Under the pieces are notes generated by a model. The model was not told the DNA's origin and did no database searches. It worked only from the letters and a program-made list of their open reading frames with translations. 64,000 bases of DNA from a virus, in IMG/VR virus record IMGVR_UViG_3300025168_000054, positions 15,959 through 79,958 of that record; one strand, 5' to 3'. The translations under genes were made by a program, and so were the position numbers. Position 1 is the first letter of the stretch; each line of letters opens with the position of its first letter. Positions 36,525 through 62,667 of the stretch are shown here, piece by piece.

Positions 36525-36932
36525 TTATTCGTCAATCTCCCAGTGATGCTGGGTACCGGGCTCATGGCATCGGCGGATATTACGAACGCTGCCCCCCGTC
36601 AGACCCAGCTTTTCGCTCAGGAAATCAACAACTTGTTTGACATTGAACTCCTTGCAGGAGAACAAGTCGAAGCTCACATGTCCTCGCAGAGGCCACGTAT
36701 GAATACTTCCGTGCGACGTGGTCAGGATTACAGTGCCCGTGACTCCTCCGTCGTCCTCGCCGTTCTCGACCATAGGGTCAAGCGGCACGGCGACCATTTC
36801 CGCAGGCTTCAGAATCTGCATACCTACCATCTCGACCAGTTCGTTGAGCACCGCACCGATCAACTCAGGGTCGTTGAGGCGCTGCGACTCTTGGGTCCAG
36901 GCGTCAATGATTACGTGTCTACCTGTTTTCAT
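36525..36932 (-). CDS. speD: Pyruvoyl-dependent AdoMet decarboxylase (SpeD) homologue; substrate uncertain
   Basis: GRHVIID, GGVTGTVILTT-SHGSIHTWP self-cleavage motif, DLFSCK. Confidence 0.88.
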   Translation of the reverse strand: MKTGRHVIIDAWTQESQRLNDPELIGAVLNELVEMVGMQILKPAEMVAVPLDPMVENGEDDGGVTGTVILTTSHGSIHTWPLRGHVSFDLFSCKEFNVKQVVDFLSEKLGLTGGSVRNIRRCHEPGTQHHWEIDE

Positions 36933-36937
36933 GATGA

Positions 36938-37918
36938 TTACTCCGGGCCGTACTGGCATAGTTCAAACGCGCCGCACTTACCGTAGCGGTGGTAGCAAAC
37001 GAGCTCGCTCTGAGCCATTTGCCAGTCCCCCTCGGTCACGTACGCTCTCTTGTGGTTGACGAGCTGGTTGCCCAGCGACATCGCCCTCGAGTAAATCTGC
37101 CGAGCCAACTGTTCGTCACGCCAAGGTGTGGCGGGTACGTGCTGACGACTCACGGTCCAGGGGCTGCGCCGCTGCACCAAGTTCAAGATGACCCCTCCGA
37201 AGTCCTCGTACAACTGCTGGCCCATGATGCGGTTGACGGCGAACTGGCCGTCCATGGCGTACTGCTGAGCACGAGTCTTGCTCACACTCCCGCCGGTCAC
37301 CTTGTGATCCCAGATGTACGTTCGCCCGTCGGAGCTATGCTTCATCACGAGGTCGAACCGCTTGGTCAATTCGATGGGCTTGCCGTGCTGCAGCGCCGGA
37401 ACGCCACGAACAGGCTCCTCAAGCCCAGGGCAATCCAGCAACGTAGGCTCTGAGAGATTCTTGTCGAGCCATAGGCCGAAGTCTCCTTCGTGGTTGTGCC
37501 CCAAGGTCAGCTTGACCTGGTTCTCGACAGACACCACACGGTCAGAGACATAGGGCTCCTTCTGAAGATATCGACGGAAGACATCAAGCGTCGTGCCGAT
37601 GTAGGGGTGAGCGTCTACGCCTTCGAGCTCTCGCCGACGCACCCACTCACGAACTGCCGCATCGGGAGGTAGGAAGTGGTCAGGGTCTGTGACGTGCTGG
37701 CCTTCGTACTCGAAGCCTCCCTGCTCGCAGCCCTTCTGAGCGTAGTAGTGAGCGAGCACGGTGTGGCCCATTGACCCCAGTGTCAGCGCCTCGGCGTTGA
37801 TGAACTCACGCTGCTTGACGTTAATGATGAACCATAATCGGTCACACTTAAAGGCTGGTCCCCAGAAGGACCAGCCTGTTGTGCTTCGACCGGTGTCGAT
37901 GAGGATGGGCTCAGGCAT
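36938..37918 (-). CDS. Cas4/RecB-like PD-(D/E)XK exonuclease with Fe-S cysteines
   Basis: KCDR...GSMGH...RFDLV...IWDHK...Q...C.....KC....LC. Confidence 0.8.
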   Translation of the reverse strand: MPEPILIDTGRSTTGWSFWGPAFKCDRLWFIINVKQREFINAEALTLGSMGHTVLAHYYAQKGCEQGGFEYEGQHVTDPDHFLPPDAAVREWVRRRELEGVDAHPYIGTTLDVFRRYLQKEPYVSDRVVSVENQVKLTLGHNHEGDFGLWLDKNLSEPTLLDCPGLEEPVRGVPALQHGKPIELTKRFDLVMKHSSDGRTYIWDHKVTGGSVSKTRAQQYAMDGQFAVNRIMGQQLYEDFGGVILNLVQRRSPWTVSRQHVPATPWRDEQLARQIYSRAMSLGNQLVNHKRAYVTEGDWQMAQSELVCYHRYGKCGAFELCQYGPE

Positions 37919-38264
37919 CGGGGAACTCCCCGGCGTCCTGCCCGAAGCTCAGCAGCTGGTCCTCGGTGATGATCTCCAGGGGGCCCTGGACGATGGTGAT
38001 CTGGCAGCCACTCCTGGCTCCCACGTTGCGCTGGGTCGGCGCCGAGTGGCTCCTCCCGACCTGTCGGAACACCTTCTCCGCCGGGCCCTCGAAGACCACG
38101 GTGCGGACGGTGCGGACCCACTGGCCCTTGAACTCCTCGAGGGACTCGCCGAGGGTGTCGGCACCCATCGCCATGACGCGGGCGATACGGCGTTCGCGGG
38201 ACGTTCGGGCCCTCATCTGCGCCTCGACGAGGGTCAGCTCTGTTGCGGTTTTGTCATCACTCAT
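37911..38264 (-). CDS. Hypothetical protein
   Basis: Coupled ORF with high GC3 and an RBS. Confidence 0.7.
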   Translation of the reverse strand: MSDDKTATELTLVEAQMRARTSRERRIARVMAMGADTLGESLEEFKGQWVRTVRTVVFEGPAEKVFRQVGRSHSAPTQRNVGARSGCQITIVQGPLEIITEDQLLSFGQDAGEFPDA

Positions 38265-38458
38265 GTCGTCTCCGGGGGGTCAGGAAGGGGTTGCCAGAAG
38301 AACTGGCCGATCTCCGTGCAGGGGCACCACACCTCGTAGTTGAACCAGATGCCGTCTTCCTCGGACTTGAAGCAGCCGATGAAGAAGGCGTCGCCATGCC
38401 ACATGAGCACTTCTTCGTCGGACGGAGGCAGGGTGTGCCGACTGTCGATCCAAGTCAC
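38261..38458 (-). CDS. DUF551-like small protein
   Basis: WID....LPP....VL....WQPLPDPP pattern; GTG start overlapping the upstream stop. Confidence 0.6.
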   Translation of the reverse strand: MTWIDSRHTLPPSDEEVLMWHGDAFFIGCFKSEEDGIWFNYEVWCPCTEIGQFFWQPLPDPPETT

Positions 38459-38721
38459 GGCTGCTCCTTGAGCCAGTCTTCGTGCGCCTTCGCGCACGCC
38501 CTGGCGTAGTTGACGATGTCGGCCGGGGTCTGCTCAGCCGACGTCGCGATGACGCAGGCCGCCCCCGGCAGGTAGTTGGCCTTGCCGCTGGAGAGGTTGT
38601 TTCTCACATCGACCTTTGCTTCGATGTCGTCGAAGCGTCCCCCCGCGGCCACACAGAAAAACAGAGTGCAGCACAGCCAGACAAGCATGAGGGCAATCTC
38701 TGTGGTGGTTCGATCTGTCAT
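38455..38721 (-). CDS. Small membrane-anchored protein
   Basis: N-terminal hydrophobic helix. Confidence 0.65.
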   Translation of the reverse strand: MTDRTTTEIALMLVWLCCTLFFCVAAGGRFDDIEAKVDVRNNLSSGKANYLPGAACVIATSAEQTPADIVNYARACAKAHEDWLKEQP

Positions 38722-39242
38722 GCGTCTTCCTGGGGCATCACGGTGAGTGTGGTGTACTCAGGAGTCGGGTCGTCGTAATCGTAGCGTCGCTCCTCGTACT
38801 GGTAGTACTCGTACTGGTAGTACACGGTGCAGGGTGCGGAGATCATGTGAGGTAGCACGTTCGCGCAGAAGTTCTGGATCTCATCCTCATAGTTCTTCAG
38901 CTCCGAGGAGACGTGCCAGACGCAACCATCCTCTGACCTTTCAGGGAGGATGTTCCGGAAGACGTAGTCGCTGGTTGTCGACGGTGTTTCGACGAGAACG
39001 TGCTGATGCCCGACGTCATCGAGGTCGCGACTCCCCGGAGTGTAAGACCCCCAAGGGATGAAGTCGCAGCGTCGCACTTTCGCCCAGTCGCTGAGCCACG
39101 AGAACTCGAAGTGCTCTGCAGCTATCTGCCAGGTCTTCTTCTGAGTGGTCTCGTCCGGTCTCACCTTCTCGAGGAAGTCGACGACCGCTCGCCCTGTGTC
39201 GTTCAGCGTCGCGCTGAACTTGACCGCTGTGTACATTCCCAT
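38718..39242 (-). CDS. Conserved phage hypothetical protein
   Basis: MGMYT...ELKNYEDEI..F motif. Confidence 0.7.
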   Translation of the reverse strand: MGMYTAVKFSATLNDTGRAVVDFLEKVRPDETTQKKTWQIAAEHFEFSWLSDWAKVRRCDFIPWGSYTPGSRDLDDVGHQHVLVETPSTTSDYVFRNILPERSEDGCVWHVSSELKNYEDEIQNFCANVLPHMISAPCTVYYQYEYYQYEERRYDYDDPTPEYTTLTVMPQEDA

Positions 39243-39243
39243 G

Positions 39244-41202
39244 TCAGTCCTCCCCGAAGAGCGCCGTCAGTACGGACGCCTTCATCTTGTTGTGATCGTC
39301 GATGCCGAGCAGCTTGTCGTCCATGCCCTGGTACTGCTCAGCCGCCAGGAACTCCTTGATTGCAGTGATCTTGTCAGCCAGGACGCCCACGACCTTCTCG
39401 TCGTAGGACTTCCGAGCCAAGACCACCTTGAGCAGCGTGGGTCGACCACCGATGCGGTCGAAGCGACCCTTCCACTGCTCGAAGTCGCCCGGCCGCCACG
39501 GAAGCATCGCGAAGATGGCGAGGTCAGAAGACTGAAGACCGTCGACAGATTCTCCGAAGGCTTGGCCAGTGCCGATGAGCAGGCAGGGCCCGCCATGGTC
39601 GCGGTAGGTCGAGATCATGTCCTCACGTTCGCGGTCGTCTGTACCACCATGACCCCACCAGATTACGGGCTTGACGCCCCCGAAGTTCTTCTGCTTGACC
39701 TCCTTTGCCAGAGCCTTCTCGATGTACGAGGTCCAGTCCTCACAGTCCTGGCGACGGGCTGTGAACAATACGACCTTGCCTCCACCGCGCAGCCCGTCGA
39801 GAACTTCCTCGATGACGTACTTGCGCTTGCGGCTCGCCGCTTCCATCAGGTTCGCTTCGAGCGCTCGCTCTCGGTCAAACTCACTGTGTGTCTTGAGCGC
39901 TTCCTTCTCCGCCTTGGCGATGACTCGCTTGAACGCCGCGGGCCGGTTCTGGTCTGACGGATCGAGCCACACGACCTGGACTCGAGTGGCAGGCAGCTGG
40001 CCATGCGACTCGGTGTGCGTCACCTCTTGCATCAGGTAGGAGGCACGGTACTTGAGCTCGTCGAGGTGGCTGCTGCCCTTGTCGTCAAGCCCGCCGTACT
40101 CACCTTCCTTCGCAGCGCAGTACCGCTTGGCAAACGACCCGAAGCCCATGCCGTACGACCCAGGAGCAAGCAGGTCGAGCTGGCTCCACAACCGGCGAGG
40201 GCGGCCGTCATCGAGAGGAGTGGCGGTCAATCCCACGCGCAGCTTGAGAGACGGCAACCTACTCACATCCATCGCAGCTACCGCACGAGTCTCTCTCGTG
40301 TCGGTCTTGGTGCGGCGCTTCTCAAACTCAATCTGACCGGTGCTGTCGAAGATGGCCTTCCACCGCTTGGGCTGGCCAAACGTATGGAGCTCGTCGATGA
40401 CCAGGACTTGGGGCTCCAGCTGTCTGACACCCTCCAAGTTGTCGGGCAGAGATTGCGCACCGAAGATGACGAAAGGTCTCTGTCCGCCGGCGTCCCCTAC
40501 CTGTCCGGCCCAATCGCAAGAAGCGAGGTAACCGTCAAGCGTCTCGTCGCCTCTGCGCATCTGGCCTTTGGGGATGACCCGGTGCGGAACGATGTTCGTG
40601 TACTCCTGCACTTGGTCCCACCAGACCCGGCGAGCCTTGGCGGGAGCAACGACACACACCGGACCTGGGCGAGTCAGGCTGGAGAGGATGGCTGTCAGAG
40701 TCTTGCCCGCGCCGCAGGGGTAAACCAGCTTCGACCAAGGGCGGGTCGTGGCCCAGTAGACTCCTCGCGCCTGGTAGTCGGTGATGAGATCGGTGACAAA
40801 GGGCTTGACCTCGCCGTCGCTGACCAGGCCTTGCACAACCTGCCGTCCGTACTCGGCCATGGTGTCCAGAGCAGCCTGGGCCGTAGGCCACGCGAAGATG
40901 TCGTCCACGTTGATAGCGTGCTCAATCTGGTAGCGAACGCATGCTCCCGCCAGGTCGTGCTCGAAGAGCCACGCTGCGTTGACCGGGACGTACGCCTTGT
41001 AGTAGGCGTAGCTGTTGACTTCAGCTGCAGGGTTGTCGCGCAGCTCCTTGGTCATGCGGTTCCATCGTCGGTCGCGAGCGCGGTGACCGTACGCCAGCAT
41101 GCCAGGCAGGCGTGTTTCAAGGTTGGCCAGGAGTGCCCCAACACGCCCGGTCACTCGGTAGATGTAGTGAGGTTGATCTTTGAGCGGAGAGAACACGGTC
41201 AT
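39244..41202 (-). CDS. Superfamily 2 (SNF2-like) DNA helicase
   Basis: PCGAGKT, VIDELH, LTATP, LWSQL, QWKGRFDRIG. Confidence 0.9.
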   Translation of the reverse strand: MTVFSPLKDQPHYIYRVTGRVGALLANLETRLPGMLAYGHRARDRRWNRMTKELRDNPAAEVNSYAYYKAYVPVNAAWLFEHDLAGACVRYQIEHAINVDDIFAWPTAQAALDTMAEYGRQVVQGLVSDGEVKPFVTDLITDYQARGVYWATTRPWSKLVYPCGAGKTLTAILSSLTRPGPVCVVAPAKARRVWWDQVQEYTNIVPHRVIPKGQMRRGDETLDGYLASCDWAGQVGDAGGQRPFVIFGAQSLPDNLEGVRQLEPQVLVIDELHTFGQPKRWKAIFDSTGQIEFEKRRTKTDTRETRAVAAMDVSRLPSLKLRVGLTATPLDDGRPRRLWSQLDLLAPGSYGMGFGSFAKRYCAAKEGEYGGLDDKGSSHLDELKYRASYLMQEVTHTESHGQLPATRVQVVWLDPSDQNRPAAFKRVIAKAEKEALKTHSEFDRERALEANLMEAASRKRKYVIEEVLDGLRGGGKVVLFTARRQDCEDWTSYIEKALAKEVKQKNFGGVKPVIWWGHGGTDDREREDMISTYRDHGGPCLLIGTGQAFGESVDGLQSSDLAIFAMLPWRPGDFEQWKGRFDRIGGRPTLLKVVLARKSYDEKVVGVLADKITAIKEFLAAEQYQGMDDKLLGIDDHNKMKASVLTALFGED

Positions 41203-42059
41203 TGTTCCATCCCATGGAAGTCCAGAGGTTGATCGAGGAGCGCGGCGACTGGTCCCTTCCAGCCGCAGCTCTGTCGATGATTGCAGTACGCGTTCAGCTG
41301 TCGTGTGGGGTCAAGCCACCACCACACGGCATTGCGCCGGCAGCGGGGGCACTCGACCAAACGGACGGCTTCGTCGTTGACCACGCCGCCAAGAGTATGT
41401 CCAAGGTCAGCGCGAGCATCAGGGTCAAGGTGCAGGTTGCGTGAGCCTGTATACACAGGGACCTCACGCAGCGACAACGCGCTGGCCAACTGCACTACGT
41501 TGCCCAACGGCGCCCACTTGAGGATGTCATCGACACGAAGCAGCGGCGCTTCAACGTGCCTGAACTCGAACGAGCTCTGATGCTTGTAGTCTTCCAGGTC
41601 GCACGCGGGCAAGAGCCACGACCGTGAGATGTCCTTACAGCTTCTGTCGATGGTCTGGCCACAATGCTCTTCGGCCCACCGCCAAGCTATCGAGTATTCG
41701 CTCTTGGTGATGTCTCGGTCCAGCGGCAGCACAACCCGGAAGCGATGAGCCACCGGGCTGTGCGACCAAGACGTGTGCAGAAGTACACACCACTGCCCCC
41801 ACGTGGTCAACGCTTCGTCGATGGTGGTCCCATCGTCGTAGTCGAGGACCAGGCAGGAAGCCTCTTGCGCGTTTGCCTTCTTGCGGCGGGGAGGCTCAAA
41901 CCGTGCGGGGCTCCACTGCGGGAGCTTGCGCTTGTCCCACACCCGGTACGCTTCGCCCGGCTGGGCCAGCAGTTCGACAAGTTGTACCATCGACAGCTGA
42001 CGTAGCGTCGCCTCGGTCAGGAACAGGTTGTCGAACAGGCTGACCCAGAAGCGCCTCAT
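41199..42059 (-). CDS. AEP-superfamily primase (prim-pol) with C-terminal zinc finger
   Basis: LVLDYDDG, HTSWSH...RFRVVLPL, IDRSCKD; CPRC...CNH..SC. Confidence 0.8.
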   Translation of the reverse strand: MRRFWVSLFDNLFLTEATLRQLSMVQLVELLAQPGEAYRVWDKRKLPQWSPARFEPPRRKKANAQEASCLVLDYDDGTTIDEALTTWGQWCVLLHTSWSHSPVAHRFRVVLPLDRDITKSEYSIAWRWAEEHCGQTIDRSCKDISRSWLLPACDLEDYKHQSSFEFRHVEAPLLRVDDILKWAPLGNVVQLASALSLREVPVYTGSRNLHLDPDARADLGHTLGGVVNDEAVRLVECPRCRRNAVWWWLDPTRQLNAYCNHRQSCGWKGPVAALLDQPLDFHGMEQ

Positions 42060-42313
42060 GCGTCGCCGACCACTTCACCGCAGTACATGTGCGCGGCGTG
42101 CTGCACCTTGGCGATGGTGTCGATCACATCCTTCGCAACCTCCAGGGAGATGTCTCCGGCGTCACACACTGTGGCGATGGCGAATGCCAGCTCTTCAGCG
42201 ACCTGTCGATAGGAGTCACCGCTCTTGATCGCCTCGTCGATTACCGCGCTGGTCGGTCGGTAGACCTTGCCGTAGTTGATCATTCTCATGAACTTGCCGT
42301 CGCGCTTAGTCAT
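42056..42313 (-). CDS. Hypothetical protein
   Basis: Coupled ORF. Confidence 0.65.
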   Translation of the reverse strand: MTKRDGKFMRMINYGKVYRPTSAVIDEAIKSGDSYRQVAEELAFAIATVCDAGDISLEVAKDVIDTIAKVQHAAHMYCGEVVGDA

Positions 42314-42610
42314 TCAGTTGTCCTTCGACGGTGGGTACCACCGCGCTGTCACTTTGTTGGTGTAGTTGTTTTCGCCAGAGTAGTAGAGAGCGCGCTGCCG
42401 CTTGCGCGTCCAGCCTGCCTGCTTCAGGTAGGCGCCGAGTTCGAGCCATCGTCGCCGCTCTCCGACGAAGTCTTCGAACAGGTCGGAGAAGTCTTCGTGG
42501 AATGCGATCTCGCTGACGCTCACACTCGGTAGCTTCGATGTGTTGGCGAGGAAGACGGCGATGCGGCCTACCACTTCTTCGCCGGACCTCTTGCAATATG
42601 TGTTGTTCAT
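42314..42610 (-). CDS. Winged-helix-like hypothetical protein
   Basis: LGAYLKQAGWTRKR resembles the C-terminal wHTH of VirE-type primase/helicases. Confidence 0.45.
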   Translation of the reverse strand: MNNTYCKRSGEEVVGRIAVFLANTSKLPSVSVSEIAFHEDFSDLFEDFVGERRRWLELGAYLKQAGWTRKRQRALYYSGENNYTNKVTARWYPPSKDN

Positions 42611-42843
42611 TCGGGTCCCTTCCAGTGTCGGTAAAAGTTCCAAAGAAACCAGCTCCCAAGAATCAACTTGAGTTGCCAGCCGGTTTTGTAGTGTCTGTAC
42701 GGTTTCGCTCGTACTTTAGGTACGACGATGGGTTCTTCTTCTCTGGGTGATATGTACATTAAGTTCCTCACGGCGCATCTCTGCACCGCAGCGCACAGGT
42801 TAGCGGCCACGCACACAACTGTCAAACAGGGTATGATGTCGCC

Positions 42844-43353
42844 ATGTCTGACCTCGAGAACATCCCTGCCCCCGACCAGTTGCTCGCTCGGTTGAACGAG
42901 CAGGACGCGGCGCTCAGCGATCCCGAAAAGGCCGGAGCTCTTCGAGAGTTGCTGCGCGCAGGCATCACGGTCGGTAAAGCAGCCAACCACCTCGACCTTC
43001 CTGTCTCTGTCGCATGGCGCATGGTCACTTCGGACAAGGCCACGCAGAAGGCGATGAACGATGGCGACGACCTGCGGCGCAGGCAGCTTCGAGCAACGCT
43101 CGAGAACCGCGCTGACGACATGTTGCAGGTCATTGTCAGTCTCGCTCACGACCCTGACATTGACGGGTCGGTCAGGCTGAAGGCAGCACAGGACATTCTC
43201 GACCGGACGGGGCTGCTGGACAAGAACACCGGAGGCGGTAAGTCCAACCAGCAGCAAGCCGCTGCGGTCATCGAGCTCTCGTCTGTTGATCGAGACTTCC
43301 ATGACCGGCTGCAGCGCATCACCGTCCGAGCAGGTACTCGGTCGGATGATTAG
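42844..43353 (+). CDS. Terminase small subunit-like HTH protein
   Basis: HTH (KAANHLDLPVSVAWR) plus VRLKAAQDILDRTG motif. Confidence 0.6.
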   Translation: MSDLENIPAPDQLLARLNEQDAALSDPEKAGALRELLRAGITVGKAANHLDLPVSVAWRMVTSDKATQKAMNDGDDLRRRQLRATLENRADDMLQVIVSLAHDPDIDGSVRLKAAQDILDRTGLLDKNTGGGKSNQQQAAAVIELSSVDRDFHDRLQRITVRAGTRSDD

Positions 43354-43814
43354 TCTTTAACGATACGGTCGATGCCGTACTTCTCTTCGAGCTTGTGCTT
43401 TAGCTCTTGGAGATCGTCAAAGCGGGGATGCCCCATCAGTGTGTTGACGATGGCTTCGGCTGACTCTGTGAGAGGCAGCGACCGAAGAACATCATCAAAC
43501 TCTTGAGCGACCTGCTCGGCCACCCTCAGGGCGTTGGCCTTGCGCTTGTAACCGTAGCCTTTGTGTCCGTCGCTAAACGTCAACCCTGTCGGCCAATGCG
43601 TAATCTTCCATCGCTTGTGTTTGGTCGAGTGACCAAACTCGACTTCCCACGTCGTGGGGTCGTCCTTGTCCTTGATCGTGTGGTCTACGATGTTGCGCGG
43701 GTGTACGGCCAGCTGACCGTAGCACCGAGCGTTACGCGCAATGACCTGGTAGGCACCGTCAACCTCGGGTAGCCGAGTGAAGACGGTGATGTCGTGAGTG
43801 CGCCACTTGTTCAT
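43350..43814 (-). CDS. Hypothetical protein
   Basis: WKITHWPTG motif; RBS GGAGG. Confidence 0.7.
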   Translation of the reverse strand: MNKWRTHDITVFTRLPEVDGAYQVIARNARCYGQLAVHPRNIVDHTIKDKDDPTTWEVEFGHSTKHKRWKITHWPTGLTFSDGHKGYGYKRKANALRVAEQVAQEFDDVLRSLPLTESAEAIVNTLMGHPRFDDLQELKHKLEEKYGIDRIVKD

Positions 43815-43815
43815 G

Positions 43816-44322: not shown

Positions 44323-44350
44323 TGCTGCTCCTTCGTGTGGTGTTGTGTGC

Positions 44351-44742: not shown

Positions 44743-44743
44743 G

Positions 44744-45503: not shown

Positions 45504-45512
45504 TGAAGTGAC

Positions 45513-54246: not shown

Positions 54247-54299
54247 ACAGTAAGGCACACCGACATGTCATGCCGGTGTGAGGTATGCCGGAAAGTGTG

Positions 54300-54880: not shown

Positions 54881-54892
54881 GGTTGTCCCATG

Positions 54893-55300: not shown

Positions 55301-55429
55301 GGCGGTCCTCCGGCGTTGTAGGTGGGTCACACTCAGTCACGCCCGTGCATCGGACGCGTCCACCGCGCACCACGTGGAGGTGGTGACCATTGCGCGGCAT
55401 GGGAGCCCCGTGCGGGGCCCCCGTCGGTC

Positions 55430-56563
55430 TCACTTCCAGTCGCTGGCGGTCGTGTGCTGACCGCGGCGGAAGTTCACGTTGTCGGCCGTTGCGGCCTGCG
55501 ACTCGAGCCCCTGAGCGGTCAGGGCGCCCCGTGCGGATCCTCCCTTCTCGGTTGCTTCGAAGAGTGCCGCCTCCGCGGAGATCTTGCCCCCGACGGCGTC
55601 GGTGATGGACCGCAGCACGCGGCGTGCCATATCACTATCTACCTCAACCTTGCGGACGGCGTAGTCCGCGCCGCTGACAGCGGGGCACACGAGGGTGGGG
55701 CGGCTGCCCTCCCTCATGTCTCCGAGCTTGGTATCCTTCACGATGCCGGCGGCGGCGATGATCTCGGCGCAATCCGCGAGGGAGAGGAACTCCCCCACGG
55801 CCCAACCGCTGGCGGTTGGGGTCGCGGCGTCAACGCCCTTGCGGGAGATCTTGAGCTTCTTGCCCGTGAGGGTCCAGGTTGCGCAAGCCTTGGAGAAGGC
55901 GCCCTTCTCGATCCACGGCCCCGCTTTCGCGGGACCCGGCCGGTAGACCGTGCAGCGCTGATCGTCAATGACGACGCGACGGTCAGTCTTGTCGGCGTTG
56001 TCGTCCGCCATGAGGCGGATGGTCTCATCGTAGGAGTCCGTTTCCAGGTAGACATTCTGGAGCGGGTGAATCACACTTCGGATCTTGCCGATCGGTGCGG
56101 GTGCGGCATCGGGGCTGGCAGGCATGGGGCTGGCGATGCCCTCGGCGTAGCCGAGGATCGCGCCGAGCATCCGCTTGACGTCATTCCCGGAAGGGAAGAC
56201 GGGCACGGAAGGCTTGCCACTATCGGGCTTGGGCTGGGACCACGCGCCGGGGCGCTTCGCAGCGTCGATGTCGCGCCACGCCGCACGGGCGGAGCGGAAC
56301 ATATCGGCCACGGCGTCCGGGCTATCGACCATGGAGGGCAAAGCCCTGCCGGCCGTATGCGCGGTCATATCGTCGGCGACCAGGGCGACGACGCCGGCCT
56401 TGATGAAGGTGGTGTCATCGGTGATCGCCGACCACACGAGGGGCGCCGTCACGGCGTCCGCCGACACAGCCGCGCCGATGGCGGGGCTGGACGGGAGGAC
56501 GAGCGTCTCGGTGGTCTCGGTGGTCTCGGTTGCGGTCTCAGGGTTGATCGTTGCGTTGATCAT
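55430..56563 (-). CDS. Hypothetical protein, first gene of the early region
   Basis: RBS GGAG before MINATINPE; ETT repeat. Confidence 0.7.
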   Translation of the reverse strand: MINATINPETATETTETTETLVLPSSPAIGAAVSADAVTAPLVWSAITDDTTFIKAGVVALVADDMTAHTAGRALPSMVDSPDAVADMFRSARAAWRDIDAAKRPGAWSQPKPDSGKPSVPVFPSGNDVKRMLGAILGYAEGIASPMPASPDAAPAPIGKIRSVIHPLQNVYLETDSYDETIRLMADDNADKTDRRVVIDDQRCTVYRPGPAKAGPWIEKGAFSKACATWTLTGKKLKISRKGVDAATPTASGWAVGEFLSLADCAEIIAAAGIVKDTKLGDMREGSRPTLVCPAVSGADYAVRKVEVDSDMARRVLRSITDAVGGKISAEAALFEATEKGGSARGALTAQGLESQAATADNVNFRRGQHTTASDWK

Positions 56564-57269
56564 GGCGGTATCTCCACTGTTGTTGTAGGTACCCAGAATG
56601 GGCATATGGGGCGTGGTTAGGGTGCGGCCGGAGCCCCCACTATGGAGAGCCCCGGCCGCGCCTCGATACCGCACACGATCGGCGTTGATCCGTTCGTTGC
56701 GATTCTTGATCTACCAGCGTTTCATGCTGGCGGCTTGGTTTCACGTCTTGCGACTGGCAGTGATATCCGCCGACACACTCGATAGCGTCGCGCGTCCCGG
56801 TCCCCGTATGGCGCTTCCGATCCGTTGCGATCCCTTGGGATTATGCGTGGTCGGTTGCGCCGGGTAGGTACCTCCTCGGAGGTACGCGGCCGGTCAGCGT
56901 TCGTGCGTAGTGCGTCGGCTATCCGTCGCTCAGGTTAGAACACCCAATAAGCCAGGGTGTCGCGCCGCTACCATCTCCGGGGGTCGTCTCCGGGTTGATC
57001 TCTACCATCATTGCGCGGTCTATGGTTGGGATGCACGGGGCGGCGTCTCACGACGGTACCCCGTACACCTGGAAGGGCGGCGCATTCTGGGAGAATGGGT
57101 TGCGGTTTGCATGCGTTGTCAAAGACTCAGGAGAAGCACTCGGTCCCACCGTCAATCCCCCACATAGGGGCGATGGGATGGCGGCGCGTTTTCTACATTG
57201 AACTCCGGGGTGGGTGACGTTGACAGTATAGCGTGCGGCGCCGTGCCCCCCCGACCCGACCCTGGTTTT

Positions 57270-57287
57270 ATAACGAACGTTCGTTAT
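57270..57287. promoter_or_regulatory. Perfect 18-bp palindrome ATAACGAACGTTCGTTAT (operator-like)
   Basis: Exact inverted repeat in the divergent non-coding region. Confidence 0.6.
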
Positions 57288-57391
57288 CAGCACGGCGCGG
57301 CACGCGACCCCCCACCAGCCAAAAACAAAATGTTAGGGACCCACTATAGGGGGGGCCCCTTTTCAATCGGAGCCGGTTTTCAAAAACAGGT

Positions 57392-57401
57392 GTGTTACAA
57401 T
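57392..57401 (+). promoter_or_regulatory. Extended -10 promoter-like motif GTGTTACAAT
   Basis: Upstream of ATG 57436. Confidence 0.5.
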
Positions 57402-57435
57402 CGTGTGCGTGTTACGCGTCTTCGGGAGACTATCC

Positions 57436-58071
57436 ATGCCATCGACGATTCGGTTGAGTTTGAAGTTGACGGAGCAGCAGGCTGCTGCACTTGACAGCGT
57501 CAAGACTGACCTTAGAAACGACTCCAAGGTTCAGGCATTGGGCGGCGAGGTCACCGACCATACGGCACTTAGATACATCCTTTACGAGGCCTTAGACGGT
57601 CGGGTGTATTCGAGTCGGACGTATGAGCCTGAGGAGCTTCCGTTGTTCGTGGCTCACGCGGAGGAGTCCTTGGTCGATTCCGCGGTGGAGGCTGTGGATA
57701 TCGGCACACCTGAGCACGATAGCCCTGAAGAGGATGTTATTCCTGTGAAGGTGTACAGTCGGCCCCACGATTGGATCTACTCGGACGATAGTGAGTGGGA
57801 TTTCCCTGAGTCTCAGGCGGAGATGCACACGTACTACGAGAATGCGGGCTGGCTTCGTGTTGCTGCGCCTTTGGAAGATCGCCTTCTTCAGTTCTACTGG
57901 ACGCCGGACGGTGCCGAGCAGGGACTGGCGGTCTTCTCTGGTCGAGACAGCTATCGTCGCGTGGTCGTGTCTCAGCGTTCGCCGGACGTGGGCGTAGCGC
58001 ATATGATTCCCGAAGACTGGGACGAGCCTCGCACGGCTACTGGCGACATCGGCATGTGGTCACCTGGTTGA
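57436..58071 (+). CDS. Hypothetical protein with a possible N-terminal ribbon-helix-helix domain
   Basis: IRLSLKLTEQQAAALD...ALRYIL; RBS GGGAG. Confidence 0.6.
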   Translation: MPSTIRLSLKLTEQQAAALDSVKTDLRNDSKVQALGGEVTDHTALRYILYEALDGRVYSSRTYEPEELPLFVAHAEESLVDSAVEAVDIGTPEHDSPEEDVIPVKVYSRPHDWIYSDDSEWDFPESQAEMHTYYENAGWLRVAAPLEDRLLQFYWTPDGAEQGLAVFSGRDSYRRVVVSQRSPDVGVAHMIPEDWDEPRTATGDIGMWSPG

Positions 58072-58084
58072 CGAGGGAGCTCCG

Positions 58085-58387
58085 ATGGTAGGGTTTGCGA
58101 ACTTGGGAGAGATCATGGCGTCGCGAGAAGACGAGCCGCAGGCCCCTCAAGCACCCCAGGTCGTGGCGGTCCCCGGCAAGAACGCCCCCGCAGGCCACTG
58201 GGGCTGCTACCTGTGGCAGACGAACCCTGGGTCGTGGCAGGATGTCGCAGATGCGCTCGAGCAACCGTTCGACGTGCTGTACGGTCTTGCGATGGACTAC
58301 TGCTGGGCCGTAGATTTCGACTGGCCGCTGCAAAAGCAGGTCGGAGAGCGCCGCGTTGTGCGCGAGTTCATCCGAGGAGCGCCGTGA
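58085..58387 (+). CDS. Hypothetical protein
   Basis: GTGA-coupled to the next gene. Confidence 0.65.
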   Translation: MVGFANLGEIMASREDEPQAPQAPQVVAVPGKNAPAGHWGCYLWQTNPGSWQDVADALEQPFDVLYGLAMDYCWAVDFDWPLQKQVGERRVVREFIRGAP

Positions 58388-58800
58388 GGGTCGTTTTCTA
58401 CGGCGGTCGGCACTTCAACAACGTCTACAAGCTGTACGAAGCCTTCTACATGCTGTACCGGGGACGCGGAATGGCCGAAATGTACGTCACAGACGACTTT
58501 GGGGCCGCTGAGCTGCTGATTTCGTACGGAAATGCGGCGGATTTGGACGTTCACTCCATCCCTGCGCCCTGGTTGATGCACGGTAGGGCGGCAGAGAGCC
58601 GTCGCAGGCGCACATTGCTCGAATCGGCGCCCGATATGGTCGTATTGTTGCCGGGCGGGCGCGATGTGGAGAATATGGAGGCGGCAACGGCGGCTGCGGG
58701 GGTCCCAATCTGGGATTTGCGCGAACTTCCGTACGTCAACCTGGGTGACGGCACCCAGATTGGCGAATACGAGCAACCCTGCGACGAGCTGCTCTTCTAA
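58384..58800 (+). CDS. Degenerate YspA/SLOG (DUF2493-like) protein
   Basis: VVFYGGR...APW..HGRAA...PDMVVLLPGG...M...AAGVP. Confidence 0.65.
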   Translation: MRVVFYGGRHFNNVYKLYEAFYMLYRGRGMAEMYVTDDFGAAELLISYGNAADLDVHSIPAPWLMHGRAAESRRRRTLLESAPDMVVLLPGGRDVENMEAATAAAGVPIWDLRELPYVNLGDGTQIGEYEQPCDELLF

Positions 58801-58827
58801 AAGGGCCGCGCATATGATTGTCGCCCA

Positions 58828-59463
58828 TCAGATGTCTTCCGGCGGCGTCATGTTGTCGGTCACGTCGTACATGTCGAGGGGAGATTCCGCGAACAGTCGG
58901 CGGCGCCCGTCTTCGTAGTCAAACACGTGGACGTTCGCACCGGTCTCATCGTCGGTGTACTGGAAATGCTCTCTGATCCCCAGGTCCTGCGGCTTGAGCA
59001 TGTGCTCGTTGAACGCCTTGGACACTCTGTCCTTGTAGTCGTCGGGCGTTGCCTTGGGAAAGACAAATGGGTTGATCTTCTCGCGGACCATGCTGTCGCT
59101 GATGAGGTCGCGTTCGATCTCATCCCCGGTTCTCATCGAAGGCGGTGGTTCGCCGGAGACCTGCGATTGTATGAGACGGCCGAGGTTTCTCGATCGCACA
59201 ACTTCAGTACGGTCGATGATTTCATCGTCGGTCAACGGCTTGGGTACAAACCCTCGGGGAGGACCCGATGCGCGGGCTTTCGACGCATTGGGCCCGAGCA
59301 TCTCCAGGTTGTAGCCGTACGGAGTTTCCGTGGTTGTCGCGACCGTGCCGCTATCGTACGTGGTCGTACCCTCCTTGAGTCGGGGGTTCAGACCAACCGT
59401 AAACTCGCTCGCCATCTCATCTTTGAGATTGGCGCACGCGTCACCTGGCGAGTAGTTTTTCAT
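58828..59463 (-). CDS. Hypothetical protein
   Basis: TGATG-coupled to the upstream gene. Confidence 0.7.
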   Translation of the reverse strand: MKNYSPGDACANLKDEMASEFTVGLNPRLKEGTTTYDSGTVATTTETPYGYNLEMLGPNASKARASGPPRGFVPKPLTDDEIIDRTEVVRSRNLGRLIQSQVSGEPPPSMRTGDEIERDLISDSMVREKINPFVFPKATPDDYKDRVSKAFNEHMLKPQDLGIREHFQYTDDETGANVHVFDYEDGRRRLFAESPLDMYDVTDNMTPPEDI

Positions 59464-59834
59464 CAGGTGATGAGGATTCGCGTCTGCAGAGTAGTCGACG
59501 GACCAGTGCTGCCGGAGTTGCCCGCGGCGTTGGATCCGATGTACAGAATCCCGAAGTCGATGGTCAGCCCGAGGGGAATCGTGTACATCCTCGTGCTGTT
59601 TCCTGGCGCGTAGAAGATGTAGTGTGCGGCGTTTGTCCCGCTGGCCTTACCTGAGGTCGCGTCCCAGATACGGAGGTATGCGTCGCCCGACCCTGCGCTG
59701 TTGTCCAGGTAGACGGCGAAGATGGTAGTCCCCCCCGACTTCCCCAAAATTGGTGACGTGCCGCCGACGACGTTGGCGTCGGAGATTTCGTTGCCGGCGA
59801 GATTGCCCGGAAGTACGCGATTAACAAGGCTCAT
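59463..59834 (-). CDS. Small beta-rich virion-like protein (paralogue of 59838-60209)
   Basis: Shared LDNS...Y/F...G..T..D/H....GL pattern. Confidence 0.6.
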   Translation of the reverse strand: MSLVNRVLPGNLAGNEISDANVVGGTSPILGKSGGTTIFAVYLDNSAGSGDAYLRIWDATSGKASGTNAAHYIFYAPGNSTRMYTIPLGLTIDFGILYIGSNAAGNSGSTGPSTTLQTRILIT

Positions 59835-59837
59835 AGT

Positions 59838-60209
59838 TCAGCTCCCCACGAGAAGGGTGGCAGCGGGTTGGCCGGGCCCCACGTTGTTATCGTCGGCTTC
59901 GTCTGCCGTCGCTCGGATGGTCACGGCCGTAGTGAACGACAGGCCATCTGCGATAACGACGGTTGTGCGGGTAGACTGCTCAACCCGAATGACGAGGTCC
60001 GGTAGAGTGCTCCCGGCGGTGGCTGACAACGCATTGTAGAACTTGAAGAAGGTGTTGGCCCCTGTGTTCTGGGAGTTGTCCAGAACCAGCGAGTGGAGCG
60101 AGACCGCACCGTCAAAAAGGTCGGCAGTACCTACGTGGTTTGTGACGGTTTCCTTGGCAATAATGTCAGGGAAATCGGAGGTACCGAGGGGCGTAGTGGT
60201 CAGGGCCAT
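59838..60209 (-). CDS. Small beta-rich virion-like protein
   Basis: Thr/Ala-rich; RBS AGGAG. Confidence 0.6.
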   Translation of the reverse strand: MALTTTPLGTSDFPDIIAKETVTNHVGTADLFDGAVSLHSLVLDNSQNTGANTFFKFYNALSATAGSTLPDLVIRVEQSTRTTVVIADGLSFTTAVTIRATADEADDNNVGPGQPAATLLVGS

Positions 60210-60236
60210 TTAGAGTTCTCCTGCGCGGGCAGCTTA

Positions 60237-60536
60237 TCAGCCGCCTGTTGCCTTTGTCACGGTCTTCTTGTTGCTCCAGGTAGCCTGGCAAGACCAGTAA
60301 CGAGCCTTGTGTTTAGGGCCTGGGTTGTCGCAGTTGTGTCGTGCCCGGAAGTTCTTGCGTCGCTTGGGGTCGTCACGCTTGATTTCCATGTTGGCGTCCC
60401 CGAAGGTCACCTTCACGACGTTGCCGTTCGGCTTCTTCACGAACACGACGAACTTCTTCCGTCCGTAGGAAGGTTCGCCCTTTCGGATGCGCCTCGGCTT
60501 GTTGAGCGCCGGAGTCTTTTTCTTCTTCTCGGCCAA
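60237..60536 (-). CDS. Conserved basic phage protein (KKF.V...FGD..M.I....P.RRK.FRARH.C...ARYWSC family)
   Basis: Motif recognition; TTG start after GAGG. Confidence 0.8.
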   Translation of the reverse strand: MAEKKKKTPALNKPRRIRKGEPSYGRKKFVVFVKKPNGNVVKVTFGDANMEIKRDDPKRRKNFRARHNCDNPGPKHKARYWSCQATWSNKKTVTKATGG

Positions 60537-60583
60537 AACGCACCTCTGCTGAGGGACAATAACACACAAGCGCCGATGGTAAG

Positions 60584-61558
60584 TCAGTCTCCCAGCAGGT
60601 AAGCCCAGATTAGCGGCGCAACAATGGTGGCGTCTGACTCGATCATAAACTTCGGGGTGTCGACATCGAGTTTGCCCCAAGTGATTTTCTCGTTGGGTGG
60701 CGCTCCTGAGTATCCGCCGTAGCTGGTCACAGCGTCACTGATCTGGCAAAAGTATCCCCAGAAGGGCGTCGATGTCTCTTTGAGGTCTTGAATCAATGCG
60801 GGCACAGCGCAGATGGCGAAGTCTCCTGCAATCCCGCCACCAATCTGAAAGAAACCAACGCTCGGAGTACCGTTGAGATCTTTGGTCTGCTGCTGGTACC
60901 ACTCTATCAAGCGAACCATCTGCTCTGTGCCTGAGACCACAGACGTATGACTCTGTAGGTTTCCTTTGAGTGCAGCGACAGCGAACATGTTGCCGCAGGT
61001 GCTGTCCTCCCACCCCGGCGTAAACACAGGGACACCGCAGCGTGACGCAGCGAGCAGCCAGCTGTCTTCAGCCTGTTGGAAGTGACGCTGCACTTCGGGT
61101 AGTGCCAGCACACTCTGAAGATGTTCCGCGGGAAGGGCTGAGCGTCCCTCTTGGTCGAATGCTTGCCAGCGTGCCAGAAGTTTTTCTGCCAAGCGGCGCA
61201 TCACTGTCTCGGGAATGCACGTGTCTGTCACGCGGTTCATGCCCTGCTCGTAAAAAGCACGGTCTTGTTCAGCCGACAGTGCTCTCCAGTTTTCGATCTC
61301 AACGTACGTGTCTCCCTCCAAGAGAGCGTAGGCATCTTCCTCTAAGTTCGCTCCCGTGCAGCAGATTCCATGCACTAAACCAGCGTCGAGCGCGCGCGAT
61401 AAGATTCGACCAATCCGAGCAGTGGACATCGCTCCGGCCAATGTCACAAACATCTTTCCGCCCGCTGTGATGTGGGCTTCGTAGGCTCGTGCAGCTGCTC
61501 GAACTTGTCGAGCGTTGTAGTGTAGATAGTGTTGGTCGACAAAGTCGCGTACTCTCAT
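60584..61558 (-). CDS. Deoxyhypusine synthase-like protein (bacterial type, SpeY/homospermidine-synthesis candidate)
   Basis: TLAGAMST, TGANLEED, NRVTD, PGWEDS, IGGG, YSGAPPNEKITWGK with the catalytic Lys, ESDATI. Confidence 0.92.
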   Translation of the reverse strand: MRVRDFVDQHYLHYNARQVRAAARAYEAHITAGGKMFVTLAGAMSTARIGRILSRALDAGLVHGICCTGANLEEDAYALLEGDTYVEIENWRALSAEQDRAFYEQGMNRVTDTCIPETVMRRLAEKLLARWQAFDQEGRSALPAEHLQSVLALPEVQRHFQQAEDSWLLAASRCGVPVFTPGWEDSTCGNMFAVAALKGNLQSHTSVVSGTEQMVRLIEWYQQQTKDLNGTPSVGFFQIGGGIAGDFAICAVPALIQDLKETSTPFWGYFCQISDAVTSYGGYSGAPPNEKITWGKLDVDTPKFMIESDATIVAPLIWAYLLGD

Positions 61559-61671
61559 TCAATCCTCCTGCCAGGCTCTACACGGGGTCCATACTTCTTA
61601 GGGGCAAAGGCACCCTGCTTGGACTAATCTTCGACGCGTAGATCTTTACTTTAAAGCTGCGAAAGAGAGTA

Positions 61672-62667
61672 ATGCAAGATTTCGATCCGAACAACGCTGC
61701 GTCTACAGAAGGTCTGTTTGGACTGTCAGACGAGCAGCCTGCGCTTGTGCGGGTGCTCCCTGTGCCTATTGACGCAACCGCGAGTTTTATGCGTGGAACG
61801 GCTGACAGTTGGAAGTACATCTTGCGCGCAAGTCATCAGGTTGATCTCTTTCATCCTCACGTTGAGTCTCCGTGGCGAGAAGGCATCGTGTTGGAAGATG
61901 TGCCGTCGAACCTTCGACAGCTAAACACAGAGGCGTGTGCGTTGGTCGCTGCGGCGAGATCCGGCGCAGCTTGCACCGACGAGGTCAACAAGATCGGGGA
62001 GACGGTTGCCGACGAAACTGAAAGGTTTGTCTCTGCAGCCTTTCAACGCAATGAAATACCTGCCATCTTGGGCGGTGACCACTCAGTGCCCTTCGGCGCT
62101 CACAAGGCTGCTGTCGCTCAGTTCGCTGAGCTGGGTGTCCTTCATATCGACGCACATGCAGACCTGAGACCGGCCTATGAAGGCTTCACGCACAGCCATG
62201 CGTCCATCTTTCACAACACCCTGAGTTTGGGAATCTCATCTCTCGCACAGGTCGGGATTCGAGACCTGTGTGAACTCGAAGCCCAGCGACAGCGCAACGA
62301 TCCAAGGATTCATACTCTGACTGATTTTGATATTGCCGACACCAAAGCACGTGGCGCAGACCTTAAAGAGCGTTTCGTAGACCTGGTAAAAACACTGCCT
62401 GAGTCTGTGTGGGTCTCGGTCGATATCGACGGACTTGATCCCTCGCTATGTCCCAATACCGGTACGCCAGTACCCGGTGGACTAAGCTGGCGTGAGTTCC
62501 GTGTTTTGATGCAGGCATTGGGGGAGTCAGACAAAAATATCGTAGGGTTCGATCTTTGCGAGGTTGGGCCTCATCCGTGGGACGCTAATGTCGGCGCACG
62601 GGTCTTGTTCGAACTGTGGTGTTGGAGTGTGAGCTCTTATCGAAGACGCTCGCAAAACCACGCATGA
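61672..62667 (+). CDS. speB: Agmatinase (ureohydrolase family)
   Basis: GGDHS, HIDAHAD, SHAS, GIRD, SVDIDGLDP, TGTPVPGG; Mn ligands intact. Confidence 0.92.
   Translation: MQDFDPNNAASTEGLFGLSDEQPALVRVLPVPIDATASFMRGTADSWKYILRASHQVDLFHPHVESPWREGIVLEDVPSNLRQLNTEACALVAAARSGAACTDEVNKIGETVADETERFVSAAFQRNEIPAILGGDHSVPFGAHKAAVAQFAELGVLHIDAHADLRPAYEGFTHSHASIFHNTLSLGISSLAQVGIRDLCELEAQRQRNDPRIHTLTDFDIADTKARGADLKERFVDLVKTLPESVWVSVDIDGLDPSLCPNTGTPVPGGLSWREFRVLMQALGESDKNIVGFDLCEVGPHPWDANVGARVLFELWCWSVSSYRRRSQNHA

Follow-up and report, generated by a model that had tools for sequence, protein, structure and literature searches.

A marine tailed phage with a speY/speB module and a SpeD-family decarboxylase: a candidate route to homospermidine

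Does a phage that holds three polyamine-type enzymes encode a route from arginine to homospermidine and, if so, through which intermediates? We addressed this question in a 64,000-nucleotide window (positions 15,959 to 79,958 of IMG/VR record IMGVR_UViG_3300025168_000054). The 79,958-bp record is a complete phage genome with an exact 127-bp terminal repeat (DTR) and encodes terminase, portal/adaptor, major head protein, endolysin, DNA polymerase, primase-helicase and helicase. The replicon carrying all three genes is a complete marine tailed phage. As the preliminary description had claimed, each of the three ORFs is in place with intact catalytic residues (Table 1).

Table 1. Coordinates, in the window, of the polyamine-type genes and their surroundings.
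Feature	Position	Strand	Evidence
SpeD-family pyruvoyl decarboxylase, 135 aa	36525..36932	-	PF02675 AdoMet_dc, E 3.8e-23; phrog_3125
Conserved small phage gene, left flank of insertion	60237..60545	-	phrog_7595, E 4.5e-11; kept in G001
speY + speB insertion, 2.14 kb	60567..62708		absent from syntenic complete sister phage G001
SpeY, DHS-like, NAD-dependent, 324 aa	60584..61558	-	PF01916 deoxyhypusine synthase, E 7.4e-39
Divergent intergenic spacer speY/speB, 113 bp	61559..61671		sequence read
SpeB homologue, arginase-fold ureohydrolase, 331 aa	61672..62667	+	PF00491 arginase family, E 9.7e-48
127-aa protein gene, right flank of insertion	62692..63075	-	ORF list, synteny, junction alignment
Putative endolysin, Amidase_3-like	63271..63870	-	PF01520, E 0.0035 (below gathering cut-off); phrog_435 endolysin, E 3e-4

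The speY and speB genes sit together in an insertion. By blastn, positions 59288-60566 of the phage studied here (G000) correspond to 68435-69721 of the complete sister phage G001, and positions 62709-63958 to 69781-71030, leaving only about 60 bp between the same flanking genes in G001, where neither SpeY nor SpeB was found. The cassette genes have GC3 values of 0.60 and 0.55, as against about 0.7-0.85 in most other called genes. Additionally, the closest relatives of both are bacterial; 15 of the closest SpeY homologues and the closest SpeB homologues come from contigs of matching size, some of only 3-5 kb. The indel, the lower GC3 and the bacterial relatives bear out the earlier proposal of an imported two-gene cassette.

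The low GC3 would also be expected if the cassette had been misassembled, or were contaminating bacterial DNA fused to a phage contig, and it does lie 1.3 kb from the deposited contig end. That end, however, marks an arbitrary point at which a circular assembly with the 127-bp DTR was opened, and on either side the insertion is bordered by genes in synteny with G001. Three diverged, independent metagenome contigs (84-92% nucleotide identity) contain both junctions, and contigs from four seawater runs, belonging to four studies, bridge both without differences. Because the junctions recur in these diverged contigs and seawater studies, the insertion is not a chimera, continuity at the cassette edges is confirmed, and we rejected the artefact as hardly conceivable. 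Among phage cassette variants dS reaches 0.3, with dN/dS of 0.05-0.14 over both genes (0.05-0.08 for SpeY and 0.14 for speB), indicating purifying selection on each.

Directly downstream of speY lies the conserved small phage gene of the left flank, which has a match in Roseobacter phage CRP-901, annotated there as 'HVA1 family', and for which we infer a TTG start preceded by AGAGG. At the other edge, speB is convergent with the adjoining phage gene, whose product has an N-terminal hydrophobic segment and no Pfam or PHROG match and whose 3' end is unlike that of the G001 copy. Because the putative endolysin gene stands on this side, the cassette is placed beside lysis-type genes. The spacer between speY and speB presumably carries both promoters; a scan of it returned no sigma-70 consensus or promoter-like site. 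The same divergent layout is found in contigs L116, L117 and L180. At the nearest cellular locus (L021) the genes form an operon, speB-speY-speA, which is co-directional whereas the phage pair is divergent; we counted this difference against an auxiliary metabolic role through the G44G chemistry described below.

The speY gene has a Shine-Dalgarno sequence, AGGAGG, 5 nt ahead of its ATG, and its product carries the catalytic Lys296 in the motif ITWGK and a conserved Glu290. The best NCBIfam match is NF001980 ('homospermidine biosynthesis protein') and NF002699 ('G44G synthase') was also matched, both below cut-off, the score being far under the equivalog cut-offs. Phage SpeY shares 76% identity with a bacterial homologue and, in the SpeY tree, is sister to a Myxococcota-labelled MAG protein (support 97), within a 62-row clade (support 99). 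The donor of the speY + speB(duh) module was probably Myxococcota-like bacteria with a speB-speY-speA operon. Asn190 and Tyr283 of the phage enzyme occupy the positions of human DHS Asp243 and Asp316, and T. thermophilus CdmS is likewise described with non-acidic residues at both.

We agree with the earlier view that a hypusination role is unlikely for this DHS-like enzyme. The conserved DHS fold and catalytic lysine would also suit an enzyme that makes no free polyamine and instead aminobutylates a macromolecule of phage or host, either at a protein lysine or on DNA, and polyamine-modified DNA is known in some phages. We regard this as very improbable, given that the two replaced aspartates are spermidine-binding residues of DHS, that the protein is nested in the clade of its 76%-identical bacterial SpeY homologue, and that it is paired with a ureohydrolase as in bacterial homospermidine operons.

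In published work, two agmatines are the substrates from which SpeY homologues form bis(guanidino)homospermidine, or G44G (PMC10981699; PMC13625781). Every tested SpeY makes G44G from agmatine, homospermidine appearing only with a ureohydrolase present, and SpeY-associated SpeB homologues hydrolyse G44G while their activity on agmatine is undetectable (PMC13625781). Because SpeY uses agmatine and the SpeY-linked SpeBs are without agmatine activity, putrescine is probably no intermediate. The order first proposed for the phage, arginine to agmatine to putrescine to homospermidine, is thus at odds with the published reactions of both enzymes (PMC10981699; PMC13625781). We infer the G44G route and the SpeB specificity from this biochemistry of homologues, and phage SpeY is presumed to be an agmatine-coupling (diagmatine/G44G) synthase.

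The SpeB homologue retains the Mn ligands H137, D160, H162, D164, D251 and D253, plus E297, all invariant in the family alignment. Since SpeY-associated homologues hydrolyse G44G and not agmatine, the 'agmatinase' of the preliminary description is probably a diagmatinase, that is, a G44G ureohydrolase. Most SpeB homologues of 35-47% identity are not linked to SpeY, so that this specificity is drawn from the closest relatives only. Alternatively, SpeB could be a true agmatinase yielding putrescine, which SpeY would condense, by itself or with another amine, to homospermidine. The top NCBIfam match of SpeB is the agmatinase model TIGR01230, earlier literature took putrescine as the SpeY substrate (quoted in PMC9992855), and E. 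coli SpeB is active on both agmatine and G44G. The TIGR01230 score, however, is 136.8 bits under a cut-off of 174.3, far below equivalog level, and the nearest relatives are SpeY-linked. A canonical agmatinase would moreover deprive SpeY of its substrate, and in the 2024 and 2026 work every SpeY assayed turned agmatine into G44G, with no detectable agmatinase activity in the associated SpeBs. A route through putrescine is therefore unlikely.

The gene for the third enzyme is 24 kb away from the cassette and part of another module, the replication module, between AAA_24 ATPase and PD-(D/E)XK nuclease genes. Its pyruvoyl-precursor Ser82, His87 and Cys102 align with S63, H68 and C83 of the T. maritima enzyme (1TLU), and its motifs are a TT-SH cleavage site, HTWPL and SCKEF; an upstream ATG at 36959 is an alternative start that would yield 144 aa. 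The sister phage G001 has the decarboxylase at 90% amino-acid identity, in keeping with the earlier suggestion that it is native to the phage lineage. In the tree it falls in a neofunctionalised 'SCK' supergroup, split from bona fide-type SpeDs with support 98. This supergroup includes SpeY-adjacent SpeDAs and the validated arginine decarboxylase (ADC) of pelagiphage HTVC201P; phage phiN3 contributes a validated AdoMetDC to it, and the literature places ornithine decarboxylases there too. Within it the phage enzyme studied here is part of a distinct, uncharacterised clade (TT-SH, HTWPL), apart from the SpeY-adjacent SpeDA clade. Because that clade is uncharacterised, assignment as an ADC, drawn from supergroup membership and pathway logic, is a guess only slightly better than even.

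It is possible, though distinctly less probable, that the speY/speB module works through G44G and that the SpeD-like enzyme is an AdoMetDC or an ornithine decarboxylase. In that case the pathway in the phage would lack a step and rely on host agmatine from SpeA, and donor-type bacteria do provide agmatine through speA. As an AdoMetDC, the enzyme would feed a host spermidine synthase, as in cyanophages. It retains the proline of HTWPL, which is conserved in bona fide AdoMetDCs (2023 JBC paper), scores 69.8 bits against TIGR03330, just short of the 75.65 cut-off, and has a Thr before the cleavage Ser, common to HTVC201P-like and ODC-like sequences. Additionally, the sister phage has it but no speY/speB, and many other viral contigs carry it alone; given also its distance from the cassette, it may have a role independent of SpeY. 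Against such an activity, neither the ESH nor the TCG motif typical of bona fide-type SpeDs is present in the enzyme, which also lacks the Gln, Phe and Tyr of HTVC201P-like sequences. Its falling short of the TIGR03330 AdoMetDC cut-off likewise counts for the ADC reading. Nor is there an acidic residue four positions past the catalytic His; by spacing, the human AdoMetDC equivalent would be Glu247, which binds the AdoMet ribose. No spermidine synthase (SpeE) was found encoded in the phage, and the product of an ODC would be unable to feed SpeY (PMC13625781). Substrate preference among arginine, ornithine and AdoMet is not assignable from sequence, and the pathway cannot be called complete, as it had been.

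We favor, as the probable reading, an auxiliary metabolic set in which a captured speY/speB pair works through G44G and the phage decarboxylase supplies at least part of the agmatine. The lineage would have taken up the bacterial speY + speB(duh) module some time ago, inserting it beside lysis genes. During infection, SpeY would couple two agmatines, by an NAD-dependent, DHS-like lysine-imine mechanism, to N1,N9-bis(guanidino)homospermidine (G44G, also diagmatine or caldomycin), from which the SpeB homologue would strip two ureas to leave homospermidine. This route would have no putrescine intermediate and would not require SAM. At least some of the agmatine would be supplied by the phage SpeD-family enzyme acting as an ADC, which would stand in for the large PLP-dependent SpeA that was not captured. 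Candidate benefits are polycations for use in translation, in replication or in the packaging of DNA. Of the three-gene phage pathway first suggested, the genes, the native decarboxylase and the imported cassette stand, but not the putrescine order or the completeness.

We found no published phage example of this combination, as the preliminary description had surmised. A 2023 survey found no viral or phage SpeY, and SpeY is absent from the 50,697 GenBank phages that we searched. IMG/VR holds 19 other SpeY-bearing records (L002-L020), with DHS-like SpeYs 46-52% identical to that of the phage here. Their contigs are classed as viral, and among them are complete ones with a DTR and ones with a terminase gene. 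The records include jumbo-phage fragments with SpeDA + SpeY and one 130-kb DTR genome with speB-speY and no ADC detected, and others have SpeY alone; no tested record combines the three genes.

Other viruses share parts of this scheme. Chlorovirus PBCV-1 (ADC, AIH, NCPAH, HSS) also encodes an arginine-to-homospermidine route, and Ralstonia phage phiRSL1, with an HSS, shares the idea of polyamine auxiliary metabolism (both cited in PMC9992855); their routes run via putrescine and a non-homologous HSS, whereas here SpeY and a ureohydrolase would act on guanidino intermediates. The ADC of pelagiphage HTVC201P (AXH71538; PMC9992855), a precedent for the ADC reading, is likewise a small pyruvoyl SpeD-family enzyme of the 'SCK/TSH' supergroup, and the host-side polyamine gene clusters drawn for Pelagibacterales include SpeY (PMC9992855). 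However, HTVC201P carries the decarboxylase only, its clade differs, and tblastn between the two enzymes gave no match at E 1e-3. Microcystis phage MaAM05 (MW495066.1) has consecutive speH_2-speH_1-speE-speB genes, which encode, as here, an arginase-fold SpeB together with a SpeD homologue that is SpeDA-like, but its set is spermidine-type (SpeE and a bona fide-type SpeD), fully clustered and without SpeY, and its SpeB shares only 31% identity with ours.

The closest counterparts are the bacterial and archaeal ADC-speY-speB(duh) clusters (PMC10407285, PMC10981699, PMC13625781), which hold the same three enzyme families; examples are speDA-speY-speB of Capsulimonas corticalis, Ca. Marinimicrobia and Solirubrobacter, and T. 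thermophilus CdmS with its ureohydrolase. The chemistry, arginine to agmatine to G44G to homospermidine, is presumably shared. The phage set differs in its viral carriage, its distant decarboxylase from a clade separate from the SpeY-adjacent SpeDAs of the clusters, and its divergent speY/speB. The unit predicted for horizontal transfer is speY+duh (PMC13625781), and the phage has captured exactly this module. What we describe is a phage with a SpeY + SpeB module beside its own decarboxylase, the chemistry being already known from bacteria.

The source of the window is a tailed phage with a complete genome. The 79,958-bp IMG/VR record, whose positions 15959-79958 make up the window, carries an exact 127-bp direct terminal repeat, is classed under 'direct terminal repeats' and has an estimated completeness of 100; the assembly is thus circular, and the contig end near the speY-speB cassette lies at an arbitrary break in it. 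Among the gene products are a large terminase (TerL), portal/adaptor, major head, tail and endolysin-like proteins, and the replication genes code for a DNA polymerase of family A, a primase-helicase and a helicase. One unbroken ORF of 4861 aa (window 10124-24709, + strand) takes up 18% of the genome; Pfam gave no match for it or for the small genes on the left side of the cassette. When window 58-64 kb was searched at the nucleotide level against GenBank phages, the sole match was a short one at 67%, in a small gene from Roseobacter phage CRP-901. Outside the window, at G000:C1:3112-3768 (- strand; locus L115 of the same phage record), is a gene for a 218-aa protein which matches phrog_3704 'ferredoxin' (auxiliary metabolic category, E 8e-30) and has no Pfam match. 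This may be a second auxiliary gene of the phage. All three polyamine-enzyme genes named in a preliminary description of this DNA were found where it had placed them.

Polyamine-enzyme genes of the phage (window coordinates)
Feature	Length	Position	Strand	Pfam match
SpeD-family protein	135 aa	36525-36932	-	PF02675, E 3.8e-23
SpeY, DHS-family	324 aa	60584-61558	-	PF01916, E 7.4e-39
SpeB, arginase-family	331 aa	61672-62667	+	PF00491, E 9.7e-48

The Pfam match of SpeY is nearly full-length (residues 13-320 vs profile positions 10-287 of 288), and the protein scores below the NCBIfam equivalog cut-offs: 126.9 bits vs 450 for NF001980, 'homospermidine biosynthesis protein', and 79.4 bits vs 500 for NF002699, the synthase of bis(guanidino)homospermidine (diagmatine, G44G). 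Phage SpeY falls in a SpeY subclade other than the ones on which these two models were built. Lys296 (ITWGK) aligns to the SWGK motif holding the catalytic lysine of solved DHS proteins, the counterpart of human DHS Lys329 and of Lys299 in CdmS, the SpeY homologue of T. thermophilus (PMC10981699). Six residues before it lies Glu290, and both residues are invariant among 23 homologues. The glutamate at this spacing in CdmS, Glu293, is the proposed binder of the guanidino group (PMC10981699). In human DHS, Asp243 and Asp316 bind spermidine, and CdmS has Phe204 and Leu286 at these positions (PMC10981699). The phage residues there, Asn190 and Tyr283 (both invariant), are non-acidic as in CdmS, with the register taken from the conserved GNM and SGA...WGK motifs rather than from structure. 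By analogy with CdmS, phage SpeY most likely couples two agmatines into G44G.

The binuclear Mn site of phage SpeB is complete (H137, D160, H162, D164, D251 and D253, plus E297; invariant in the SpeB family alignment), and the protein scores 136.8 bits against the agmatinase equivalog TIGR01230, under the cut-off of 174.3. The speB gene lies 113 bp from speY, and the two genes also adjoin each other in a cellular locus (L021) and in three variants of the phage (L116, L117 and L180). JGI metagenome SpeB homologues at 35-47% identity showed no SpeY linkage, so they give no help in assigning specificity. Published work on SpeY-associated SpeBs found that they hydrolyse G44G, with agmatine activity not detectable (PMC13625781), and phage SpeB is presumed to be such a G44G ureohydrolase (DUH).

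The preliminary description had arranged these enzymes as arginine to agmatine to putrescine to homospermidine. The middle of that order is probably wrong given the published SpeY and SpeB biochemistry. CdmS couples two agmatines to yield bis-guanidino homospermidine (Kobayashi et al. 2024, PMC10981699), all SpeY homologues tested from diverse phyla perform the same coupling (Li et al. 2026, PMC13625781), and homospermidine was seen only when the ureohydrolase was present (PMC13625781). The order supported by these studies is probably agmatine to G44G, a step that would be carried out by SpeY, followed by hydrolysis of G44G to homospermidine and two urea, which SpeB would perform.

The cassette is a genuine and acquired part of the genome. 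G001, another complete IMG/VR genome with direct terminal repeats (81,570 bp), shows synteny with the phage at 67-98% nucleotide identity and carries the decarboxylase (90% amino-acid identity), with no SpeY or SpeB found in it. The alignment of the two phages runs to window 60566 and resumes at 62709, such that 2,142 bp here correspond to about 60 bp in G001. GC3 is 0.60 for speY and 0.55 for speB, while the other called genes mostly range from about 0.7 to 0.85. Together with the cellular relatives of SpeY, the lower GC3 and the absence from G001 bear out the earlier proposal of an imported two-gene cassette. The 3' end of the right-flank gene (window 62692-63075, - strand) is unlike G001 69781-69900, and this gene apparently had its C-terminal coding end replaced when the cassette was inserted. 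Within the cassette, a scan for sigma-70 promoters found nothing, and a terminator scan gave a single terminator-like match, which is below the shuffled expectation.

Continuity across the cassette edges was also examined in independent assemblies. L116, L117 and L180 are metagenome contigs from other assemblies that are 84-92% nucleotide-identical to the phage and have the same divergent speY/speB pair joined to the same phage flanks. Additionally, Logan contigs from four seawater runs, belonging to four studies dated 2017-2024, bridge both junctions without one difference. Chimeric assembly at these edges, which the preliminary description had named as a way in which its proposal could fail, is ruled out by this recurrence of the junctions. 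Comparisons between the phage variants gave dN/dS values of 0.05-0.08 (speY) and 0.14 (speB), at dS of up to 0.3, indicating that the cassette genes have been under purifying selection for considerable time within the phage lineage.

The nearest SpeY relatives beyond the phage group share 70-76% identity, and their labels, which are MAG annotations, are where given mostly Myxococcota or Sandaracinaceae. In our tree, phage SpeY is sister to one such MAG protein (support 97) within a 62-sequence clade (support 99). For SpeB, the nearest cellular homologues reach only 48-55% identity. Fifteen of these are on contigs exactly equal in length to that of one of the closest SpeYs, including contigs of 3-5 kb, which together with L021 indicates that speY and speB are linked in that lineage. 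L021 itself is a speB-speY-speA locus with overlapping stop and start codons, in which the third gene encodes a PLP-dependent biosynthetic arginine decarboxylase. The phage appears to have captured the first two genes of a speB-speY-speA arrangement, which are now divergent, but not speA. The speY+duh pair was previously concluded to be the expected unit of horizontal transfer (PMC13625781), and by analogy the phage cassette is a putative example of that unit.

The decarboxylase is the weak link of the proposed pathway. It has the class 1b SpeD fold, and its Ser82, His87 and Cys102 align to S63, H68 and C83 of the T. maritima enzyme, which are the processing and catalytic residues (JBC 2023). 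Against the AdoMetDC equivalog TIGR03330 it scores 69.8 bits, under the cut-off of 75.65, and it lacks the motifs of a bona fide AdoMetDC, with TTSH in place of ESH and SCK in place of TCG. A motif comparison combined with a small tree split the bona fide-type SpeDs (ESH...HTWPE...TCG, represented by Syn1 and speH_2 of the Microcystis phage MaAM05) from a large 'SCK' supergroup (support 98). This supergroup holds SpeY-adjacent SpeD homologues of viral contigs, the pelagiphage HTVC201P ADC and the Sinorhizobium phage phiN3 AdoMetDC, the last two with validated activities (PMC9992855). Phage SpeD falls inside the 'SCK' supergroup in a clade of its own, defined by TT-SH, HTWPL and an acidic loop insertion, and apart from the SpeY-adjacent clade of SpeD-derived ADCs (SpeDA). 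A metagenomic SpeD-like homologue at 38% identity (P0280) has the self-cleavage motif TTSHLSIH three times in tandem; either its processing site is naturally triplicated, or the repeat is a quirk of assembly or sequencing.

Residues and context both bear on the substrate, for which AdoMet and ornithine have to be weighed against arginine. The HTWPL motif keeps a Pro conserved throughout the bona fide AdoMetDCs (JBC 2023, Fig. 8), the identity of this 'gamma' Pro having been assigned by comparing bona fide-type with SpeY-adjacent sequences. The phage clade is joined weakly (support 81) to a group holding both the HTVC201P ADC and the phiN3 AdoMetDC, and of the residues common to HTVC201P-like sequences the phage enzyme has only one (Thr). 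Four residues past its catalytic His, it has no acidic residue; in human AdoMetDC this position is Glu247, which binds the AdoMet ribose, an equivalence drawn from spacing. No spermidine synthase was found in the phage. Members of the TT-SH/HTWPL clade are frequent among viral contigs and widespread in marine and jumbo phages as stand-alone genes. In 16 viral records with such relatives, no SpeY or SpeE was found, and none of 80 cellular SpeY loci had a SpeD homologue within 8 kb. Genomic context thus failed to give a substrate for the SpeD-like decarboxylase. Arginine is favoured by pathway logic, since SpeY needs agmatine, the phage appears not to have taken speA, and there is precedent in the pelagiphage ADC, for which the host side includes SpeY (PMC9992855). 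On balance, we lean slightly toward the protein being an arginine decarboxylase; a role as either an AdoMetDC or an ODC, the two taken together, is a less probable but substantial alternative.

We also asked how this gene set compares with those of other viruses. A systematic virosphere survey of 2023 detected no SpeY homologue in the genomes of viruses and phages, and the only viral route to homospermidine that it described runs via HSS and putrescine (PMC9992855). A tblastn search of 50,697 GenBank phage records likewise found no SpeY, neither cassette protein has a family in PHROGs, and full-text literature searches turned up no account of SpeY in a phage. The supposition that this combination had not been described in a phage therefore held. 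IMG/VR contains 19 further SpeY-bearing records at 46-52% identity, of which G009, G012 and G017 (direct terminal repeats, completeness 100) and G013 (linear, 99) are essentially complete. A phrog_2 terminase match at E 1e-5 or better occurs in 4 of the 15 records searched (G014, G015, G016 and G034). Three of these four, with loci L013, L016 and L020, are jumbo-phage fragments with SpeDA-like and SpeY genes, a pair also carried by L008, L011 and L012. The SpeDA-like gene lies 1-2 kb from the SpeY gene in L013 (8406-10951), L016, L020, L008 and L011/L012. Five of these SpeDA and SpeY records (L013, L016, L020, L008 and L012) were searched for an arginase-family gene, and none turned up; such phages may make G44G and have the host do the last step. 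In the complete-looking 130,392-bp genome G009, an arginase-family gene lies immediately upstream of SpeY (L010:8905-10981), with no SpeD-type or PLP-type decarboxylase, and this speB-speY pair represents a second capture, independent of the first. A decarboxylase, SpeY and an arginase-fold enzyme occur together in none of the other IMG/VR SpeY records tested, a comparison limited to the SpeD, PLP-ADC and arginase families.

Polyamine auxiliary genes of viruses are an active topic, and this phage, which together with its variants occurs in seawater metagenomes from several studies, indicates that phages have also recruited the second bacterial route, agmatine-dependent SpeY/DUH. What the lineage received was the two-gene module whose horizontal transfer the 2026 paper had predicted (PMC13625781), and the complete sister genomes with and without it provide a natural before/after case of stepwise viral pathway assembly. 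As a tentative proposal, which we hold at somewhat less than even confidence, this lineage would be the first viral one with a self-sufficient agmatine/diagmatine route leading to homospermidine, the TT-SH/HTWPL SpeD clade would be a further independent emergence of ADC, and phages would act as vehicles for speY+duh. If true, phage carriage of the speY+duh module would explain the patchy distribution of SpeY among bacteria. The three small genes are directly testable in the E. coli speB/speD deletion strains of published work.

Virus-encoded polyamine synthesis is already known, as are the speDA/speY/duh pathway and its chemistry. What is new is the combination, a predicted agmatine/diagmatine route in a phage, assembled stepwise. 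It differs from the cluster of Microcystis phage MaAM05 (L101, MW495066.1, 246315-249093), which has speH_2, speH_1, speE and speB in a row and is spermidine-type. There, speH_2 has the bona fide-type motifs ESH, HTWPE and TCG and speH_1 the SpeDA-like motifs AESH, HSF and SCK. Together, the MaAM05 genes seem to make up a complete phage-borne set of the aminopropylagmatine type, leading from arginine to spermidine.
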